Sequence record: MN850615.1
Origin: Escherichia phage kvi
Strand: one strand, 5' to 3'
DNA length: 64,000 nucleotides
Part shown: positions 17,746 through 46,795 of the stretch, one piece after another
Layout: every line of letters begins with the position of its first letter
Numbering within the stretch: position 1 is the stretch's first letter
The notes under the pieces: model-generated
The model's input: the letters and a program-made list of their open reading frames with translations, nothing else
What the model was told of the DNA's origin: nothing
The model's database searches: none
Made by a program: the position numbers and the translations under genes

Positions 17746-18223
17746 CTAAATCATTGCAATATTTTAGTGCCTTAGTTTGAAATTCTGCGCTGTTAAGTTC
17801 TTCATAACGGTCATAATCACCGTTTAATGCTGCCTTTCTTGCTTCTTGCTCTATCTGCATGTCAGACATGATAATACAGCGATCCCGTGCTTTCATCTTC
17901 TCAAGTTGTATAGACTCTTCTTTCTGCTTGCGCAATTCTTCTTGACGCTTCTTTTCTTCTTGTGCTTTCTCTTCCTGCGCTTCTTTGATTGCATCCTTGA
18001 ACATCTGCGTTTGTGGTGCTAAACCAACTTTAACGCGATCCACGTCTCGACGTTCCATTTTAGAAATAAAGCACGATTCGATCTGATCATCACTTGCATA
18101 TGCTGCTTTACATTCACGAAGCAAGAAAACCGGATCTGATTTAGCATTCATCATAGCTTCCATGTTGGCACAACCAGTAAGCATGAATGCAGCCGCAAGA
18201 CCAATCAGTTTAATCATTTTCAT
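17738..18223 (-). CDS. Predicted lipoprotein
   Basis: 161 aa; signal peptide with lipobox LTGC; Glu/Lys-rich coiled segment. Confidence 0.6.
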   Translation of the reverse strand: MKMIKLIGLAAAFMLTGCANMEAMMNAKSDPVFLLRECKAAYASDDQIESCFISKMERRDVDRVKVGLAPQTQMFKDAIKEAQEEKAQEEKKRQEELRKQKEESIQLEKMKARDRCIIMSDMQIEQEARKAALNGDYDRYEELNSAEFQTKALKYCNDLAK

Positions 18224-19044
18224 TTAGTCACCTCACCGAAAATTGTAAATTGTCTACGATTCTCATCGCCGAAAGATTCTACTACGTCGTTTACCTTGAC
18301 GCAAGTCCCGCGCGGTAAAATTACTTCACATTCGCAAGGGTTCCATGCAATTGACCCAACAACAAAACCTTTATGATCTTTTACGTCAATTACCCATGAT
18401 ACATTACAAGAATGCTGCATCTTTCCGGTCATTGATTCATATCGATTCTCACAATAAAGGCTAGTGCTGTTTGATAGCCATCCTCCAAAGATGATTGGTG
18501 TCATGCTGGTCGATACAAAGTTTTTAAAGGTAAACTCCTTATCTTCAATGATGCGCTCTATTGTCTGAATGTCAAGATGTTGACCGCGATAAAGAGTACC
18601 GTTTAACTTTTCGGTTTTATCCATGACACAATCCATCAAATCAACAATCTCTGATATCTCATCGGTCATGTCTTCTTCCCCTAAGAGAGCACCATTTACC
18701 CATTCGTATTGCTCAGACACATAATCACAGATTGCATTATATTCTGCTGGTGTTATGTTGTTATGTTTGTAATGTTTGAATACATTATCTCCAAAGTCTT
18801 CGGAGTGTACTTCATACATCACATTAATGATTTTCTTGACAAATCCATAATCTTGTGTCTCACGCTCAAGGAAGCGGATAACCTTCACATAATCATCAAA
18901 GTTAATCTGATCGCTGATCATCTCAGTGATCATGTAGCCATTAATCCCCTCAATGTCATATGTTTCGATGTAATTATCCATACGTTCCATCATTGATTCG
19001 CGTGATTCTTCCGAAAGACGAAAATCCTGTAATTTCTTGAACAT
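18220..19044 (-). CDS. ADP-ribosyltransferase, Alt/Mod family (second copy)
   Basis: 274 aa; R-S-E triad: LYRGQ, FVSTS, ECEVILPRG; paralogous to Alt C-terminal domain. Confidence 0.8.
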   Translation of the reverse strand: MFKKLQDFRLSEESRESMMERMDNYIETYDIEGINGYMITEMISDQINFDDYVKVIRFLERETQDYGFVKKIINVMYEVHSEDFGDNVFKHYKHNNITPAEYNAICDYVSEQYEWVNGALLGEEDMTDEISEIVDLMDCVMDKTEKLNGTLYRGQHLDIQTIERIIEDKEFTFKNFVSTSMTPIIFGGWLSNSTSLYCENRYESMTGKMQHSCNVSWVIDVKDHKGFVVGSIAWNPCECEVILPRGTCVKVNDVVESFGDENRRQFTIFGEVTK

Positions 19045-19122: not shown

Positions 19123-21174
19123 TTACATTTTAAATTTATCTGGCATTGCGTCTACAGATACCAGATCAGCGATAAGCTGACGTAGAGTTGCCTTATCTGC
19201 TTTCTTACGTTCGGTTTTAGCTTCGCTAATGAAGCTGGAGAAAGACAGGTCAGAAGCAGGTTTAACAACACCTTCACGGATGAATGCATCACCGTCCGCG
19301 ATCATCTCGCCAGATTCTTGTAATGCTGCCAGTTCATTTTTGTTCATAATATGTGCCTCAATGTAATAAGTTTCTTGTGAATCCGTCGATGCCGTAGCAC
19401 GAGTTACCGTATCAAAGGATAACACAACACCGCGAGGAAGTAAAATCTCGCATTCTTTGTAAGCAAATGCTTTGTTACCTACTGGCAAGACAGGGATGTT
19501 TTCCGCGCCAGCAATGGAGAAAGCAACATTAGCGCCACCTTCACCACGAGAGCCAGCCATAGAATCAACACCAGCAACGGCACTAGCCACGTTTGCATTC
19601 CAGCCGCCAAAAATGTTAGGTGCAAGGGAAGTGCTCACATAGTTTTTAAAGTAAAACGCTTTTTGCTTACGTGCAGTTTCCCACATTTGCGACCGGAAGT
19701 CCATACCACGATACAGAATAGTACCCGGATCAAGTTTAACTCCATAGTTGGAGAAGGCATTATCCAGTGCATCACACATCTTGACCAATTCTTCTGGATC
19801 TGCGATGCCTTCAAACTCTTCCAGCTTACGGTCGGTTAGGAAGTTGTTCATATTGATGTATGCTGCATCGGCATATTCGCTCAACACAAAACCTTCCGCG
19901 CCCGGCAGATCAAGATCAATATCTGCCATCATTTCACCCATGTTGCTAGCAATTGCTTCAAACATACCGGAAGCAACATTACGTAGGGCATCGGTTTTAA
20001 TCTGGGTGATGTGACTACGCAGCATTTCAGCTTTTACATCTGCTGGCATAGACTGGTCTACTCGATCCATTGCCAGGGCGGTGATCTTGTTTTCGAATAC
20101 TTCCTCGCTCATGATTTCTTTTAAGCGTTTGATTGATGCTGCGATAACTTCCGCAGACAATGGATCATATTGATCCTGAACTTTTACCAGTTCGCTTACT
20201 GCGTATTTTGCATCGGCTTCGCTTTCAAAAATAGTACGCATGAAACCATAGCGAGTGATAATATCACTTGTCCAGTCATTCAGAGAACGAGCGGTTGAAC
20301 GTTCTAAGGCTTGACGGTCAATCAGAGTATTAAACTGTTTCTTAGGTTCTGCTTCGGTGATATCTTCTTCCGGTTTAAGATTAATTTTTTCTGGATGATT
20401 CACATAGTCGCTGTTATAGGTCGCTTGAGTTTTCAGCATTTCTTCTTTAGTCAAACGAGATTTAGCCGCTACGCGTTGTTCTGCTTCCGCGTTTCGTTCT
20501 TCTTCTGACACAAGACTAGCCGCATATGCCTCATCTTTAGTCAGAGATTCACCAGTAGCCTTAGATACCCAGCGATCACCTAAATCACTTTCTACTTTAG
20601 TGAACAAGGATTCATCAAGTTTAATCCCTTTAATCTTATCAATCGCCATCCCGCGACGCTTGACAACAACTAAAGCGATCTTTTTGCTGGTCATTACTTC
20701 CTGCTGGAATACTTCAAACTTCGGTGTACGACGCACCAAACGCTCTATAACGCGCTTAACCAGTTCGGTCTTACCTTTCATGCGGGATACGTTAAAACGG
20801 AACATAACAGCGTCTAATTGCGCTTTACGGGCTGTTTCCATAACCACATCAAAAGCACTTGACATAACTGCAATCGGGTTATCGCCTAGACCATTTTTAA
20901 GCTGTACAATACGACCGCTTTTGTTCATTTCGCACAGTACAACATGTGCGGTCTTGTCACCCATACGAATGATTTTAGGTGTTTTGTTGGTGAAGTTACA
21001 AAGACGGACAATCACATCTTTATCGCGTGTCTGTACTGCAAAAAGCTGTTTAGGATTCTGCTTAGGCTTTAAGCACTGTACCGGAGCAATACTGCCAAAG
21101 TTTTCTTCCTCTTCCGTCAACAGCCATTTCTCGAAAGATTCAATCATTAGATCGTCGATTTCTAAGTTAAACAT
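19123..21174 (-). CDS. alt: Alt ADP-ribosyltransferase
   Basis: 683 aa (T4 Alt 682 aa); ILYRGMD, YVSTSLAPNIFGG, ECEILLPRG. Confidence 0.9.
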   Translation of the reverse strand: MFNLEIDDLMIESFEKWLLTEEEENFGSIAPVQCLKPKQNPKQLFAVQTRDKDVIVRLCNFTNKTPKIIRMGDKTAHVVLCEMNKSGRIVQLKNGLGDNPIAVMSSAFDVVMETARKAQLDAVMFRFNVSRMKGKTELVKRVIERLVRRTPKFEVFQQEVMTSKKIALVVVKRRGMAIDKIKGIKLDESLFTKVESDLGDRWVSKATGESLTKDEAYAASLVSEEERNAEAEQRVAAKSRLTKEEMLKTQATYNSDYVNHPEKINLKPEEDITEAEPKKQFNTLIDRQALERSTARSLNDWTSDIITRYGFMRTIFESEADAKYAVSELVKVQDQYDPLSAEVIAASIKRLKEIMSEEVFENKITALAMDRVDQSMPADVKAEMLRSHITQIKTDALRNVASGMFEAIASNMGEMMADIDLDLPGAEGFVLSEYADAAYINMNNFLTDRKLEEFEGIADPEELVKMCDALDNAFSNYGVKLDPGTILYRGMDFRSQMWETARKQKAFYFKNYVSTSLAPNIFGGWNANVASAVAGVDSMAGSRGEGGANVAFSIAGAENIPVLPVGNKAFAYKECEILLPRGVVLSFDTVTRATASTDSQETYYIEAHIMNKNELAALQESGEMIADGDAFIREGVVKPASDLSFSSFISEAKTERKKADKATLRQLIADLVSVDAMPDKFKM

Positions 21175-21759: not shown

Positions 21760-22278
21760 TTAGTTATTTTTTAATTGCTCATCTTGCAATAGGGCAATCA
21801 CATGCTGGCGATGTTCTTCCGATTGAGGCACACCGAAAAAGTTTGTTTTGTAGAAATACTCTAATCGGTCTTCTCGTGTGCTCTCTTCCATCATGATCGC
21901 GGGTAGTCCGAGATTTCTGAAACGTCGCTTTTCTGCTGGCGTAAAATCACTGTAATACAACATAGAATCATCATTACAAGCAATGCTAAACTCATCATTC
22001 ATAAAGGAGAATATTGCGTTTAAACGCTGTTTACCGTCCACGATTTCGATCTCATAGCGAGAGCCATCATCAATCTTAGCCATTGCGATAGCACCAACCG
22101 GAAAATCATTAATAAGGTTTTCGATAAACATACGTTTGTTTTCGGTGTCCCATACTAAAGGACGCTGATAATCTGGGTTCATGTTGATATAGCCATCTTC
22201 TAACCATGCATCATAAACAGAGATGACAAAGTTTTTAGTATTGGTATAGTAACGGCGTTTAGGCGTTAAACGGTTCAT
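21760..22278 (-). CDS. DUF262 / ParB-like (GmrSD N-terminal-type) domain protein
   Basis: 172 aa from ATG 22278; PDYQRPLVW and IVDGKQRLNAI match DUF262 signature; no nuclease domain. Confidence 0.6.
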   Translation of the reverse strand: MNRLTPKRRYYTNTKNFVISVYDAWLEDGYINMNPDYQRPLVWDTENKRMFIENLINDFPVGAIAMAKIDDGSRYEIEIVDGKQRLNAIFSFMNDEFSIACNDDSMLYYSDFTPAEKRRFRNLGLPAIMMEESTREDRLEYFYKTNFFGVPQSEEHRQHVIALLQDEQLKNN

Positions 22279-22279
22279 G

Positions 22280-22612
22280 TTATAGTCTCCTGAATGGATC
22301 ATCACGTAAATCAATATCTTTTAAGAACTCATCCCATGAATGCCGGATATTGTTCTTAATTCTCCAGATAAGCGCAGGGATTGAACGCTCTCCCATCTGG
22401 AAGTATGGATCATATGATCCGTATGCCCAATATGCTACTACAATTCCACAATCAGCGCAATAGTATTCTATTTCACTGGCTGGCGACCAAAGTCCATCAA
22501 TATGATCGGTGATCTTGCTTTCGATGTTATGGCTATGACAATCAGGGCAACGGATGCAATGACCTTGTTTATCGTAATTTGACGTTAGCGAATACTTAAA
22601 CAATCTCATCAT
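22280..22612 (-). CDS. Zinc-ribbon protein
   Basis: 110 aa; CIRCPDC ... CADCG; ATGATGA overlap with upstream gene. Confidence 0.55.
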   Translation of the reverse strand: MMRLFKYSLTSNYDKQGHCIRCPDCHSHNIESKITDHIDGLWSPASEIEYYCADCGIVVAYWAYGSYDPYFQMGERSIPALIWRIKNNIRHSWDEFLKDIDLRDDPFRRL

Positions 22613-27381: not shown

Positions 27382-27410
27382 ATTATAGGGGATCGGTGAT
27401 CCCCTGTCAA
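27382..27410 (-). promoter_or_regulatory. Early promoter with palindromic spacer
   Basis: TTGACA-GGGGATCACCGATCCCC-TATAAT. Confidence 0.65.
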
Positions 27411-28526: not shown

Positions 28527-28555
28527 AGTATAGGGGATCGGTGATCCCCTGTCAA
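28527..28555 (-). promoter_or_regulatory. Early promoter with palindromic spacer
   Basis: TTGACA-GGGGATCACCGATCCCC-TATACT. Confidence 0.6.
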
Positions 28556-28920: not shown

Positions 28921-28949
28921 AGTATAGGGGATCACCGATCCCCTGTCAA
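28921..28949 (-). promoter_or_regulatory. Early promoter with palindromic spacer
   Basis: TTGACA-GGGGATCGGTGATCCCC-TATACT (loop inverted relative to 28527 copy). Confidence 0.6.
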
Positions 28950-28961
28950 CAACTTTTTGAA

Positions 28962-29438
28962 TTATTTTTCTTGATGCTCGCGATCGTACTTTTCGAAATA
29001 AAATTCTACTGGCTGGTCGTGGATTGACAGCAAGCCAAAGCGTTTAGCCGCTCGCAATCCCATATTGCGCTGAATGTACTTCTGGAAGTTCTCGCGTATA
29101 CACTTACGCCAGGATTCTAAGCCCATGCAGCTTTTATAAAGATTGCATTGCACACATGCCGGATTCATGTTATCAAGTATATCATGCTCCGGTTTATGCA
29201 TTCCTACAACCTTATACTTCCACGATCCATCATCATTACGGGCAATTCGTCCATTTTCATCATAGACAACCTTTGAGCGTCGTAATACTGGTTTGATATG
29301 GTCTGCGTGCCAGCGATCCCCTAGTTCCTCGCCACAATAGGCACAACGTCCACCGTATTTCATTTTCAGGATCTGACGTTGCTCTTTCTTTGACAATTTT
29401 TTAGGTTTAGGGGCTTTCGCCCCTTCATTATCACACAT
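28962..29438 (-). CDS. HNH endonuclease
   Basis: 158 aa; CAYCGE..WHADHIKPV..NMNPACVQCN; start overlaps ligase stop by 8 nt. Confidence 0.8.
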   Translation of the reverse strand: MCDNEGAKAPKPKKLSKKEQRQILKMKYGGRCAYCGEELGDRWHADHIKPVLRRSKVVYDENGRIARNDDGSWKYKVVGMHKPEHDILDNMNPACVQCNLYKSCMGLESWRKCIRENFQKYIQRNMGLRAAKRFGLLSIHDQPVEFYFEKYDREHQEK

Positions 29439-30927
29439 CGAATACCTCTTTTACTGTATTTGCAGCGGTCTTGTCGTAGCGAATACGTTTGATGATCGGG
29501 AGAAATAAAGAGAACTCCGGTTCATCTTCTTTACGTGATTTGCTGCGAATGTACCCGTTGCATGTCATCTCGATGACTTTTCCAATCAGGTTATGACGGT
29601 CAGCCCATAACATTTCTCGGTCAAGTTCATTTCGACGATCGAACGGAATTACACGTTCGATACCATCATCACCTTTTTCGGTTGTAGTGTCGGTTAATCC
29701 CGATCCGGTGTTAGTCATCATTCGTCCACACGCACTACGGACAGTAAAACCGCCTACCTTATTGGGGTCTTTACTATGCGGATATACATCAACAATTTCC
29801 GCGTCGAAGTCAATCACTTCTTTAAATTTAACCTGATCTTTACTACGGCGATCTTCAAATACACCATGTAAATTTTTAAGGATAATACCTTCTAAGCCCA
29901 TGTTGACATAACGATGATATACTTCGCGAGCTTCATCGATATTGTTAACTACAGTGTTTTCGATGATCTGAACACGAGGATCGTTAAGTTCTTCAACAAT
30001 CTGTTTTAGTTCTTCAAATCGATCTTTATATTGCTTCGTTGCTTTCTCGTTTCCGTAGTACACATCACGGTCGATAACATCCCAGACAGTGTAAACAATA
30101 CATTGGGCTTCTTCTTTTGGAATAGTTCCTTTCAGTGATTTGTTGAGGATACCATTTCCGGTCTGACGGTCTGCAACAACGGATTCTTTCACTGCTTCCG
30201 CTACTGGCGTTAATGGCATTTCCTCTTCTTCAAATATCCATGACAGAGTACCATCATAAACGCTCTCAACGAAGTTCTGCGCTGGTGTTTGCGAAAGGGT
30301 AGGCATATATACCAATTCACCATCTAGAACAATTCCACGGCCTCGTAGACGCTCTAAAACCGCAAACAAATCATCAAGTCCTTGATAGGTATTACCTGAG
30401 CGGGTATAGATTGCTAATGTTTCCCCGTCAATATCAGCCATACCACGAGCGCCATCGCTTTTAAGTTGTGCATACGCCGGATACTTGATATTAGCAATAG
30501 TCTTATCAGAACATGACGATGCAAGGTGACACGGTTGCTGGGGGATCAGTTTCTTCCATACCTTGTTTGCAGTGGTAGCGGAACAACCACATTCCAGATC
30601 ACGATTCAGGACCATCATTGCAACTTTAGCATCATCTTCTGACAAGCAAGTCAGAGTATCGGTAACTAGCTGTAATGCTGCGTTACCAGTTACTTGACGC
30701 GTGGCAAGTTTATTTTTAAAGACCTGTAATGCACCGGATAAAGACAATACAGACGAATAGCGAGATGGTTTATCGTATTTCTTTACGCCAAACGTAACCT
30801 GTTTGCAATATGCCAGATAAAAGCATTCTTTCAGTGTTTCATTGCTTGCAGATTCTTTCAGGATCTTTTCTTTCAGCGATGTTTTGTCGGTCGCTGCAAG
30901 CTGGTTAATGATATTAAGAATTGACAT
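29431..30927 (-). CDS. 30: ATP-dependent DNA ligase gp30
   Basis: 498 aa from ATG 30927; KVW..LIPQQP..LASS, AQLKSDGAR (KxDG), LDGELVY, EGIILKN, KFKEVID as in T4 ligase. Confidence 0.9.
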   Translation of the reverse strand: MSILNIINQLAATDKTSLKEKILKESASNETLKECFYLAYCKQVTFGVKKYDKPSRYSSVLSLSGALQVFKNKLATRQVTGNAALQLVTDTLTCLSEDDAKVAMMVLNRDLECGCSATTANKVWKKLIPQQPCHLASSCSDKTIANIKYPAYAQLKSDGARGMADIDGETLAIYTRSGNTYQGLDDLFAVLERLRGRGIVLDGELVYMPTLSQTPAQNFVESVYDGTLSWIFEEEEMPLTPVAEAVKESVVADRQTGNGILNKSLKGTIPKEEAQCIVYTVWDVIDRDVYYGNEKATKQYKDRFEELKQIVEELNDPRVQIIENTVVNNIDEAREVYHRYVNMGLEGIILKNLHGVFEDRRSKDQVKFKEVIDFDAEIVDVYPHSKDPNKVGGFTVRSACGRMMTNTGSGLTDTTTEKGDDGIERVIPFDRRNELDREMLWADRHNLIGKVIEMTCNGYIRSKSRKEDEPEFSLFLPIIKRIRYDKTAANTVKEVFDV

Positions 30928-31393
30928 TTTCACCTCGTTTTGTTAAACGTTCACGAATATCATTGAGGATACTACAAAATTCCGATTCAGTCAATATAGT
31001 CTTTAACGGATCAGTTCCACCTATGCTATGACGCAATTTCTTATTTCCGGTAGCGAGTAATGCTTTACAAAATTCTGGGTTATTCCGTGCCATCGTAACA
31101 AATGCCAGATGTACCAGTCTGTAATAATGCTCACTCATTCGATGAATAGGGCGACCCTGAAAATATAACATGTGATTCTCAATCTTTTCAGTTCTTCCGG
31201 TTCTTTTTGCTTTGCCACCGTGCATCAAAAAGATTTCTCTTTGTCTCTGAGGGTTCTTAAATCTTAGCCCCTGTAAAAATCCTTCTGTGCTGTTAATATC
31301 GCAACCAAATAGACGGAATGGTCTTTTATTGAAATTACTCAATTCACCCGATGGATAAGGTCCACCCGCATAGATATCAATTTCAGAAGTCAT
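30914..31393 (-). CDS. NADAR (DUF1768)-like protein
   Basis: 159 aa; GGPYPSGELSNFNKRPF..EGFLQGLRF..EHYYRLVHLAF fits the NADAR/YbiA pattern. Confidence 0.55.
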   Translation of the reverse strand: MTSEIDIYAGGPYPSGELSNFNKRPFRLFGCDINSTEGFLQGLRFKNPQRQREIFLMHGGKAKRTGRTEKIENHMLYFQGRPIHRMSEHYYRLVHLAFVTMARNNPEFCKALLATGNKKLRHSIGGTDPLKTILTESEFCSILNDIRERLTKRGENVNS

Positions 31394-31547
31394 TGAAACT
31401 AATCTCGCTAATCAGAGAGAACGGATCATAATCGTCATTAGGAATATCGATAGTAATCGAATGAGGGTTTACCCATACACCAAACTGGTCTTCTTCGGTG
31501 AATACTTCGGTATGGATTTCGTGGATGTTTACATTCATAGTTTTCAT
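31383..31547 (-). CDS. Hypothetical small protein (54 aa)
   Basis: Not in track; AAGGA SD; 3' end overlaps NADAR start. Confidence 0.3.
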   Translation of the reverse strand: MKTMNVNIHEIHTEVFTEEDQFGVWVNPHSITIDIPNDDYDPFSLISEISFNDF

Positions 31548-31590: not shown

Positions 31591-31618
31591 CAAAATATAG
31601 GCGGGATTATTACCCGCC
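31591..31618 (-). terminator. Terminator after gene 31
   Basis: GGCGGG-ATTATTA-CCCGCC with T-run on - strand. Confidence 0.5.
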
Positions 31619-42156: not shown

Positions 42157-42180
42157 GGGGGCTTTCGCCCCCTTTGTTTA
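42157..42180 (+). other. GC hairpin with + strand T-tract in a - strand gene gap
   Basis: GGGGGC-TTTC-GCCCCC followed by TTTGTTTA. Confidence 0.4.
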
Positions 42181-43398
42181 TACTGCCATTTGAGCGGTGA
42201 TCGCTGGATGGCTTTGATAGTTGTGAATTTTAAAGTCTTTCGGAGTCTTTGTCAATACCTCATCTAAAGATTTAAATTCCGGCAACTCAATTGTTGGTTT
42301 ATCAAACGGAACACGGCTTAACTGTTCCATAACTTGATCAAAGTGGTTTTTGTAAATGTGAGTATCTCCACCAGAGAAAATCAGTTCTCCTACCTCAAGA
42401 TCACACATTTTCGCTATGATGTGAGTTAACAGCGCATAGCTGGCAACATTAAAGGGCAAGCCCAAAAAGCTGTCTACGCTTCGCTGAAACCACATACAAG
42501 ACAGTTTACCTTCATTGACGTAGAATTGCACGAAAGGATGACATACACCTAATACAGCATTATGTGTTCCCTGTACGTTCCATGAGTCAATAATGATCCG
42601 GCGATCCGTTGGATTGTTTTTAATTTGTTCAATCACGTTTTGTAACTGGTCTTCCCAAATCTTCGGGCGATAGACATATTCTTCATCGTCTTTAGTGCTT
42701 GATGTGTCTACGTCCATACTAACAAACATCGTGGTATCCGGTGCTATAATATCCCCACCCAGATAATCACTATCAAGCAGATAACCGAAATAACCATCAT
42801 CTACCCATTCCTGGAATCCCCACAAGCAATATGCATCATTAACAAAATTAGATTGAGTCTTCCAGTGGTCTGCTACCAGAATATAATCAAACTCTTCATA
42901 ACGCATACCACGCCAGATAGCACATAAACGGTCTTCTGTGTCATTGGTTGGCGTAAAGTCTTCTACCCACGGGTGCTTAAATGTATGTGTATATTTGCTC
43001 TTAACGCGCTTAATTTTGATTTCACCATGTGGATGAATCGGTTTGCGTCGCCACGCCATACCATACATATTGCCGACATTATAACCATTGAATCGCAAGG
43101 GATTCTTTTCTTTCATATCAAGACAGTTGCCGCGCCAAATATCAAAGGCTTCCTCGTCAAACTTGCCGCGTGTAATTTCCTGTAAGCGACGGCGGTCAAG
43201 TGATCCCTCCATAAACCATAGCAATTCGCCAATTACAGAGGCTGTAGCCATCTTTTTAGTGGTCAGTAATGGGAAACCCTTGCTTAAATCAATTCGCATC
43301 TCTGCGCCGAATTTAGAGAGCGTACCTACCCCCGTGCGGTCTTCACGAGGACAGCCATTATCAAGAACATCACGCAATAGTTTCAAATATTCTTTCAT
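42178..43398 (-). CDS. td: Thymidylate synthase with large internal insertion
   Basis: 406 aa; conserved TS blocks (FPLLTTKK, DSWNV, CH, GLPFNVASYALLTHIIAKMCDLEVGE) split by about 130 extra residues. Confidence 0.8.
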   Translation of the reverse strand: MKEYLKLLRDVLDNGCPREDRTGVGTLSKFGAEMRIDLSKGFPLLTTKKMATASVIGELLWFMEGSLDRRRLQEITRGKFDEEAFDIWRGNCLDMKEKNPLRFNGYNVGNMYGMAWRRKPIHPHGEIKIKRVKSKYTHTFKHPWVEDFTPTNDTEDRLCAIWRGMRYEEFDYILVADHWKTQSNFVNDAYCLWGFQEWVDDGYFGYLLDSDYLGGDIIAPDTTMFVSMDVDTSSTKDDEEYVYRPKIWEDQLQNVIEQIKNNPTDRRIIIDSWNVQGTHNAVLGVCHPFVQFYVNEGKLSCMWFQRSVDSFLGLPFNVASYALLTHIIAKMCDLEVGELIFSGGDTHIYKNHFDQVMEQLSRVPFDKPTIELPEFKSLDEVLTKTPKDFKIHNYQSHPAITAQMAV

Positions 43399-46198: not shown

Positions 46199-46795
46199 TT
46201 AATTGCTTGTCAATACTTTATCAATTATATCTAACAGTTTTGGCTTTCTATTTTCAAATTCTAACATCTCTTCGGGAGAAATGTCAACTACTTCTGTTTT
46301 GTTGAAAAAGTTTGGGTCTATAGCATCAGCAACAAAGTTTCTCGCAAGTGCTGCCGCTTTCTCATGAACATATATTCCCAAATATATCAACTTCTTTCTT
46401 TCGACCTGAATATTGGCAACATATTTACCATCTCGTTTATAAAGACTAACACCGATATATTCAGACGATCGGCCTTTCTGTTTACCCATATTTCTTGAGT
46501 TTTGTTGCTCGTTCGCATCTCTCAAGTTTTCAATCCGATTATCTGTTATAATTCGGTTAACATGGTCAACGTATTTTGGCATGTATCCATGATGCATAAA
46601 GAAAATTATTCTATGCTCTTTATGATGTTTACCATCGATACACACCAATCTGTATCCATGACTAGGATTAACTCCACCCGCTCTAGATCCGACTTTATGC
46701 TTTCTGTTTGTCGATATCTTGCGAATCAGCTTACCGTTATCATATTTAAAGAGTTCATGACAACGAGCATACAATTCAGGATCATATGTTTTCAC
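46199..46795 (-). CDS. HNH homing endonuclease with AP2-like DNA-binding domain
   Basis: 198 aa, GTG start; HNH block (DHVNRIITDNRIENLR) and AP2-like (SEYIGVSLYKRDGKYVANIQ); inserted between 32 and 59. Confidence 0.7.
   Translation of the reverse strand: MKTYDPELYARCHELFKYDNGKLIRKISTNRKHKVGSRAGGVNPSHGYRLVCIDGKHHKEHRIIFFMHHGYMPKYVDHVNRIITDNRIENLRDANEQQNSRNMGKQKGRSSEYIGVSLYKRDGKYVANIQVERKKLIYLGIYVHEKAAALARNFVADAIDPNFFNKTEVVDISPEEMLEFENRKPKLLDIIDKVLTSN

Follow-up and report, generated by a model that had tools for sequence, protein, structure and literature searches.

NADAR proteins reverse the ADP-ribosylation of guanine that is catalysed by DarT1 (Schuller et al. 2023; PMC11543638), acting on guanine N2 linkages (PMC11543638, PMC12945103). 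Hydrolysis of ADP-ribosylated guanine (G-ADPr) in vitro was described for gp30.3 of phage T4 in a 2024 paper in Toxins (PMC11125620) and also in PMC12945103. Johannesman et al. (2025, Nat Commun; PMC11825919) mapped the DarTG1 resistance of T-even phages to gene 30.3, which was therefore renamed adfN. The T4 gene is dispensable on hosts that lack DarTG1 and essential only where DarTG1 is present, and in a transposon screen adfN insertions were lost on DarTG1 hosts only. T4 AdfN alone strips ADP-ribose from DarT1-modified DNA in vitro, acts on guanine-modified, not on thymidine-modified DNA, and is impaired by the substitutions E36A or K43A or by loss of its C-terminal helix, which is also missing from the defective RB69 allele; the protein is fully effective only in T-even infection (PMC11825919). 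The three phage NADARs assayed so far are all guanine-DNA specific and all counter DarTG1 (PMC11825919). A His residue in the last β-strand marks the phage NADARs, replacing the Glu or Asp of other subfamilies (PMC11125620, PMC11543638).

Here, we analysed a 64,000-nt stretch of the genome of Escherichia phage kvi (MN850615.1; hereafter the window), a Krischvirus, i.e., an RB49-like T4-type coliphage. An earlier note, made from the sequence alone, had proposed that an ORF in the window acts in the reversal of DNA ADP-ribosylation or against DarT. Orthology to T4 AdfN, membership in family PF08010 and the key residues support this proposal, and we predict that the product of this gene, 30.3, is a DNA guanine-ADP-ribose glycohydrolase.

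Gene 30.3 and its neighbourhood

The ORF exists as the earlier note had described it, and it is a real gene rather than a chance reading frame (Table 1). The 3.1-kb stretch around it matches 59 phage records, among them those of AV108, kaaroe and RB49, at 97.7–99.4% identity, and the ORF is intact in all 59 of these Krischvirus records. Its product is 100% identical to gp30.3 as annotated in the RB49 record AJ550428 from 2003, in which the 54-aa ORF is likewise named, as gp31.-1, and the gene downstream is annotated as gene 30, DNA ligase. Gene 30.3 is under purifying selection: codon differences to four Krischvirus relatives comprised 16 synonymous and a single non-synonymous one, and dN/dS was 0.11 against a metagenomic relative (L009; 69% protein identity), in which gene order and overlaps around 30.3 are as in kvi. 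An exhaustive HMMER search recovered 973 homologous representatives at E ≤ 0.001, compared with only 13 proteins in a word-indexed search, and tblastn matched the gene in 1509 phage records.

Public annotation of these homologues is inconsistent. Most records call them "hypothetical protein", and those of Rhizobium phage P10VF (L008, 3504–3965) and UPEC03 are labelled "putative homing endonuclease". For phage vB-Eco-KMB43 (OR525698; L005, 2665–3144), a 59-aa fragment is annotated, which might be read as a shortened gene; however, the record contains an intact ORF of 159 aa that does not differ from that of kvi, and we consider the entry a misannotation.

Table 1. Features of the phage kvi window, with coordinates counted from its first nucleotide.
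Feature	Positions	Strand	Description
Second ADP-ribosyltransferase gene	18220-19044		
Alt-like ADP-ribosyltransferase gene	19123-21174		
GmrSD_N protein gene	21760-22302	minus	180 aa; GmrSD_N (DUF262) restriction-endonuclease N-terminal domain, E=7e-20
PeSL-like cassette	27382-27410	minus	
PeSL-like cassette	28527-28555	minus	
PeSL-type early promoter	28921-28949	minus	TTGACA-GGGGATCGGTGATCCCC-TATACT, stem-loop in spacer; downstream block edge
HNH endonuclease gene	28962-29438	minus	158 aa; PF01844 E=5e-6; phrog_2118 E=1.2e-54
Gene 30, ATP-dependent DNA ligase	29431-30927	minus	498 aa from ATG 30927; PF01068 E=2.8e-22; phrog_114 E=2e-141
Gene 30.3 / adfN orthologue	30914-31393	minus	159-aa phage-type NADAR, ATG start
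Gene 31.-1	31383-31547	minus	54-aa ORF; phrog_15277 E=3.7e-42; annotated gp31.-1 in RB49
Terminator-like GC-rich hairpin and T-run	31600-31618	minus	6 GC pairs, tail TATATTTTGG; upstream block edge
Thymidylate synthase ORF	42178-43398	minus	406 aa, ~140 aa longer than usual
HNH_3 + AP2-domain ORF	46199-46597	minus	called with 132 aa; N-terminus apparently incomplete

Gene 30.3 is surrounded by gene 31, 31.-1, the ligase gene and an HNH gene, all packed tightly. Its stop codon TAA (30914–30916) lies inside the ligase gene, so that the two overlap by 14 nt, and the GAGGTG Shine-Dalgarno sequence of the ligase sits within the 30.3 coding sequence. At the other end, 31.-1, itself preceded by an AAGGA Shine-Dalgarno sequence, overlaps 30.3 from its ATG (31393) by 11 nt within the sequence ATGACTTCTGA, and 31.-1 is probably translationally coupled to 30.3. 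The ligase stop and the ATG of the HNH gene overlap by 8 nt. This last gene, found in 58 of the 59 Krischvirus records covering the query, closes the block, and the four genes 31.-1, 30.3, 30 and HNH, which belong to the early region, are probably co-transcribed and translationally coupled. The overlaps at both ends of 30.3 and the nearby HNH nuclease gene had been recognised correctly before; the term "fused", which the earlier note had used, does not apply, as these are separate, overlapping and co-directional genes and encode no fusion protein. The kvi ligase shares 41% identity with T4 gp30 and is annotated likewise in W115 and RB49.

Upstream, the block is bounded by a terminator-like hairpin directly after gene 31. 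Between this hairpin and 31.-1 we searched for a promoter and found no convincing one, which suggests that the block is transcribed by read-through. A PeSL-type early promoter directly after the HNH stop forms the downstream edge.

Mobile PeSL promoter/terminator cassettes are known from RB49 and phi1 (PMC2839356, PMC4122927). Three near-identical PeSL-like cassettes exist in the kvi window, all on the minus strand and one of them the promoter just mentioned, with the pattern TTGACA-GGGGATCnnnGATCCCC-TATAnT and a perfect stem-loop in the spacer, a combination not expected to occur even once by chance. Small ORFs in the hyperplastic region that follows the HNH gene are flanked by these cassettes.

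The small gene 31.-1 evolves fast. The metagenomic relative L009 (4847–5011) keeps its position and the 11-nt overlap with 30.3 despite the distance; the two proteins share 38% identity (dN/dS 0.47), and the motif IPNDDYDPxSLI is their sole conserved part. T4 gp30.4 occupies the equivalent position, and no similarity between it and gp31.-1 was detected; we therefore do not regard gp31.-1 as its counterpart.

Two further genes in other parts of the window deserve mention. The PF00303 match of the thymidylate synthase ORF is divided into two stretches, the second of which (profile positions 110–266) begins only at residue 250, implying an in-frame insertion in the middle of the gene. The ORF with HNH_3 and AP2 domains sits between gene 32 and gene 59 and resembles the remnant or insertion of a homing endonuclease.

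Family membership, fold and key residues

The 30.3 protein matches PF08010 over almost the entire profile (positions 2–138 of 138), scoring 132.5 bits where the cutoff is 36 (E=1.2e-38). It also matches phrog_652, and BLASTP aligned it to T4 gp30.3 over the full length with 38% identity (E=2e-30). The score against PF08719, the canonical NADAR family of the YbiA type, remained below threshold (15.5 bits where 35.1 are required; E=0.021), and NCBIfam holds no model for the protein. The earlier note had suggested a comparison with PF08719 and the NADAR fold; the former did not reach its cutoff, whereas the fold is present, together with PF08010. The kvi protein is thus akin to the canonical NADAR proteins at the level of superfamily, i.e., fold, only. 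YbiA was reached by family profile search, not by a single-sequence phmmer search against the PDB, in which the sole match, to DltA, was spurious.

A single-sequence AlphaFold run yielded an unusable model (pLDDT 46.6); instead, we used a run with an alignment of 73 sequences. This model has the NADAR (YbiA) fold, a helical core flanked by small sheets, and contains a C-terminal helix (residues 136–158); aligned with T4 gp30.3, the kvi protein extends to the T4 C-terminus and beyond. In an alignment of 166 family members, E37 is the catalytic Glu, which aligns with E36 of T4 and is a Glu in 160 of the sequences; its equivalents are E43 in PnNADAR and E88 in E. coli C7. H122, at the last strand (119–121/122), is the His of phage NADARs, kept in 159 of the 166 members and invariant in alignment A3. 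Q41 and essentially every other residue of the family signature are retained as well.

These features make the gene the Krischvirus (RB49-type) orthologue of T4 gp30.3, and its product is probably, like AdfN, a minimal single-domain ADP-ribosylglycohydrolase with NADAR fold. Both proteins belong to PF08010 and to the same length class (159 aa in kvi, 152 aa in T4), are similar from end to end, and share the minimal NADAR core with its catalytic Glu and the His typical of phage NADARs, as well as the C-terminal helix that T4 AdfN requires. Both are also encoded between gene 31 and gene 30 as orphans without a toxin partner. They differ in that kvi has R44 in place of K43 and nine additional C-terminal residues, and in that kvi 30.3 directly abuts the ligase gene and follows the 54-aa 31.-1, which is unrelated to the 30.4 found at this place in T4. 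Furthermore, kvi lies outside the Tevenvirinae tested, and its allele is known from sequence alone.

Other described NADARs are less similar. DarG1 proteins (E. coli C7; Geobacter lovleyi, 8bat; PMC11543638) are encoded next to their DarT1 toxin; in contrast, the only ADP-ribosyltransferases (ARTs) in the kvi window are Alt-type and ~10 kb away from 30.3. In the kvi protein, moreover, the last strand carries His where DarG1 has its catalytic Asp, Arg stands at the position equivalent to K95, and neither the N-terminal extension of DarG1 nor its DNA-binding elements are present. It does not have the characteristics of a DarG1 antitoxin of a DarTG1 system. Compared with E. coli YbiA and PF08719 (2b3w; PnNADAR, 8bau), His replaces the Glu that defines YbiA, and the kvi protein has no link to the hydrolysis of riboflavin intermediates. 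AdfN-Bas32 and AdfN-Bas60, from T5-like phages and Vequintavirinae, are phage-encoded orphan NADARs too, and both counter DarTG1; they represent other NADAR branches that were acquired independently (PMC11825919), whereas kvi carries the gp30.3 branch.

Among metagenomic proteins, NADARs of the gp30.3 type occur in fusions with thymidine kinase (P0070), a calcineurin-like phosphoesterase (P0058) or BspA-type leucine-rich repeats (P0061), and as tandem duplicates (P0019, P0021). Homologues of ~470 aa with an unannotated N-terminal region of ~320 aa are common (P0024, P0039, P0076).

Arginine at the phosphate-binding position

The position of the phosphate-coordinating Lys, seven residues after the catalytic Glu, is occupied by Arg (R44) in kvi. 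Its equivalents K43 in T4, K50 in PnNADAR and K95 in E. coli C7 are all Lys, as are 150 of the 166 aligned members; Arg was found in 10 (~6%). It is common to Krischvirus, the 69%-identical L009 relative and the homologue of Acinetobacter Lazarusvirus fHyAci03, which is the closest one outside Krischvirus. Therefore, R44 is a stable trait of this lineage.

In the NADAR of E. coli C7, the very same exchange, K95R, left G-ADPr hydrolysis in vitro intact, and the rescue of cells from DarT1 was lost (PMC11543638). Hence, the efficacy of the R44 allele in vivo is not guaranteed, and in the searchable literature we found no paper on RB49 or any other Krischvirus against DarTG1.

One may therefore ask if the target of the kvi NADAR hydrolase has shifted or widened, so that DNA modified by DarT1 is not its main substrate and the K-to-R exchange is an adaptation. 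Guanosine-ADP-ribosylated RNA, or DNA modified by guanine ARTs resembling pierisin/ScARP or YarT, would be examples of such targets. Retention of Arg from Krischvirus through the L009 relative to Lazarusvirus would then indicate that R44 was selected rather than accidental. The loss of anti-DarT1 function in vivo in the DarG1-type K95R variant is in line with this, as are the capacity of all NADAR families to hydrolyse RNA G-ADPr too (PMC12945103) and the variation of in vivo specificity between NADAR subfamilies (PMC11125620). However, all other residues of the family signature are unchanged, and a phosphate ligand is changed only conservatively when Arg replaces Lys, an exchange that, as K95R, kept catalysis in vitro (PMC11543638). 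Moreover, each of the phage NADARs assayed to date was specific for guanine in DNA and active against DarTG1 (PMC11825919). We consider a shifted target unlikely and prefer an AdfN-type activity on DarT1-modified DNA.

A related idea concerns the branch as a whole. The fixed Arg, corresponding to the uncoupling K95R exchange, and the absence of 30.1 and 30.2 from the window tentatively suggest that AdfN of Krischvirus and Lazarusvirus may differ from T4 AdfN in its in vivo target or in the need for a partner, although we rate this as improbable. The difference might lie in another guanine-ART toxin, in RNA G-ADPr or in a dependence on the co-translated gp31.-1. If true, comparison with T4 AdfN could help to identify the T-even-specific factor which the latter needs.

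Gene order and the adjacent DNA ligase

The earlier note had taken the adjacent ligase gene as a hint at function. It is conceivable that NADAR and ligase, perhaps with the HNH nuclease, form a repair module that excises and reseals ADP-ribosylated DNA; the way in which start and stop codons overlap from 30.3 through 30 to HNH implies co-expression, and the L009 relative keeps these overlaps too. However, overlapping genes are the norm throughout the kvi genome, and the gene order of other phages does not fit a joint mechanism. T4 has the genes in the order 31-rIII-30.9...30.4-30.3-30.2-30.1-30-alt.1-alt and Acinetobacter phage fHyAci03 in the order 31-rIII-..-30.3-30.2-30-alt, i.e., 30.2, and in T4 also 30.1, separate 30.3 from the ligase gene. 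The 30.3 homologue of Aeromonas phage 31 is found in a tRNA cluster and that of Rhizobium phage P10VF adjoins a helicase gene, both without ligase adjacency. Homologues of T4 gp30.1, gp30.2, gp30.4–30.9 and rIII were not detected within the kvi window, and 30.3 abuts the ligase gene because 30.1 and 30.2 are absent. The adjacency thus represents inherited T4-type synteny plus gene loss and provides no evidence of a joint mechanism.

The biochemistry likewise speaks against such a module, as T4 AdfN needs no second protein to remove ADP-ribose from DNA in vitro. Judging from the NADAR mechanism (PMC11543638), the DNA backbone would stay intact with no nick to seal, and hydrolysis would restore an intact base, so that no ligase step should be needed. 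Due to the variable synteny across phages, we rejected a functional coupling to the ligase, which we regard as extremely unlikely.

ADP-ribosyltransferases of the phage

The earlier note had also pointed to two ADP-ribosyltransferases in support of a DNA-reversal role. Both genes are present (Table 1), but by family assignment they encode Alt-type modifiers of RNA polymerase, which weakens this argument. In T4, Alt, ModA and ModB modify host proteins, at arginine, and the two ARTs of the window are not known to modify DNA. Gene 30.3 might instead clean off-target or regulatory ADP-ribosylation set by these two enzymes. Their genes, ~10 kb away, are transcribed in the same direction as 30.3, and alt adjoins the 30.3-30 block in T4 and in the Acinetobacter phage. 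Yet enzymes of the Alt family act on arginine in proteins, whereas NADARs act on guanine N2 linkages, and T4 does without adfN on hosts free of DarTG1. Furthermore, 30.3 homologues exist in phages or at positions without alt nearby (Aeromonas phage 31, P10VF). Since the ARTs of the phage are Alt-type, we rejected a role linked to them; it appears very unlikely compared with the removal of guanine ADP-ribose placed by a host toxin.

Just downstream of the Alt-like ART region, the window encodes a protein with the GmrSD_N domain (Table 1).

Proposed function and implications

By analogy with the T4 protein and other NADARs, the kvi gene product would strip ADP-ribose from guanine and thereby defeat DarTG1; for this explanation as a whole we estimate a probability of roughly 0.8. 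In a host carrying DarTG1, DarT1 would ADP-ribosylate guanine in the phage DNA and block replication. In the ADP-ribose bound by kvi AdfN, E37 and H122 would surround the distal ribose and the basic R44 would contact the diphosphate; hydrolysis of the N-glycosidic bond between ribose and guanine would then give unmodified DNA and allow the phage to replicate. The activity, the guanine specificity and the anti-DarTG1 role presumably match those established for its relatives.

The function of the family was already published between 2023 and 2025, and the gene was already named gp30.3 in RB49. Only the lineage-fixed K-to-R exchange and the absence of the T4 flanking genes are mildly new. The kvi gene should be labelled as an AdfN-type anti-DarTG1 NADAR, and beyond correct annotation the import is small. 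Nevertheless, this assignment predicts that RB49-like coliphages, therapeutic or environmental, resist E. coli carrying DarTG1. With its K-to-R exchange, the natural variant lends itself directly to testing the weight of this residue in vivo, and a comparison of the RB49 allele with T4 AdfN should be useful with regard to the T-even-specific requirement of the latter.
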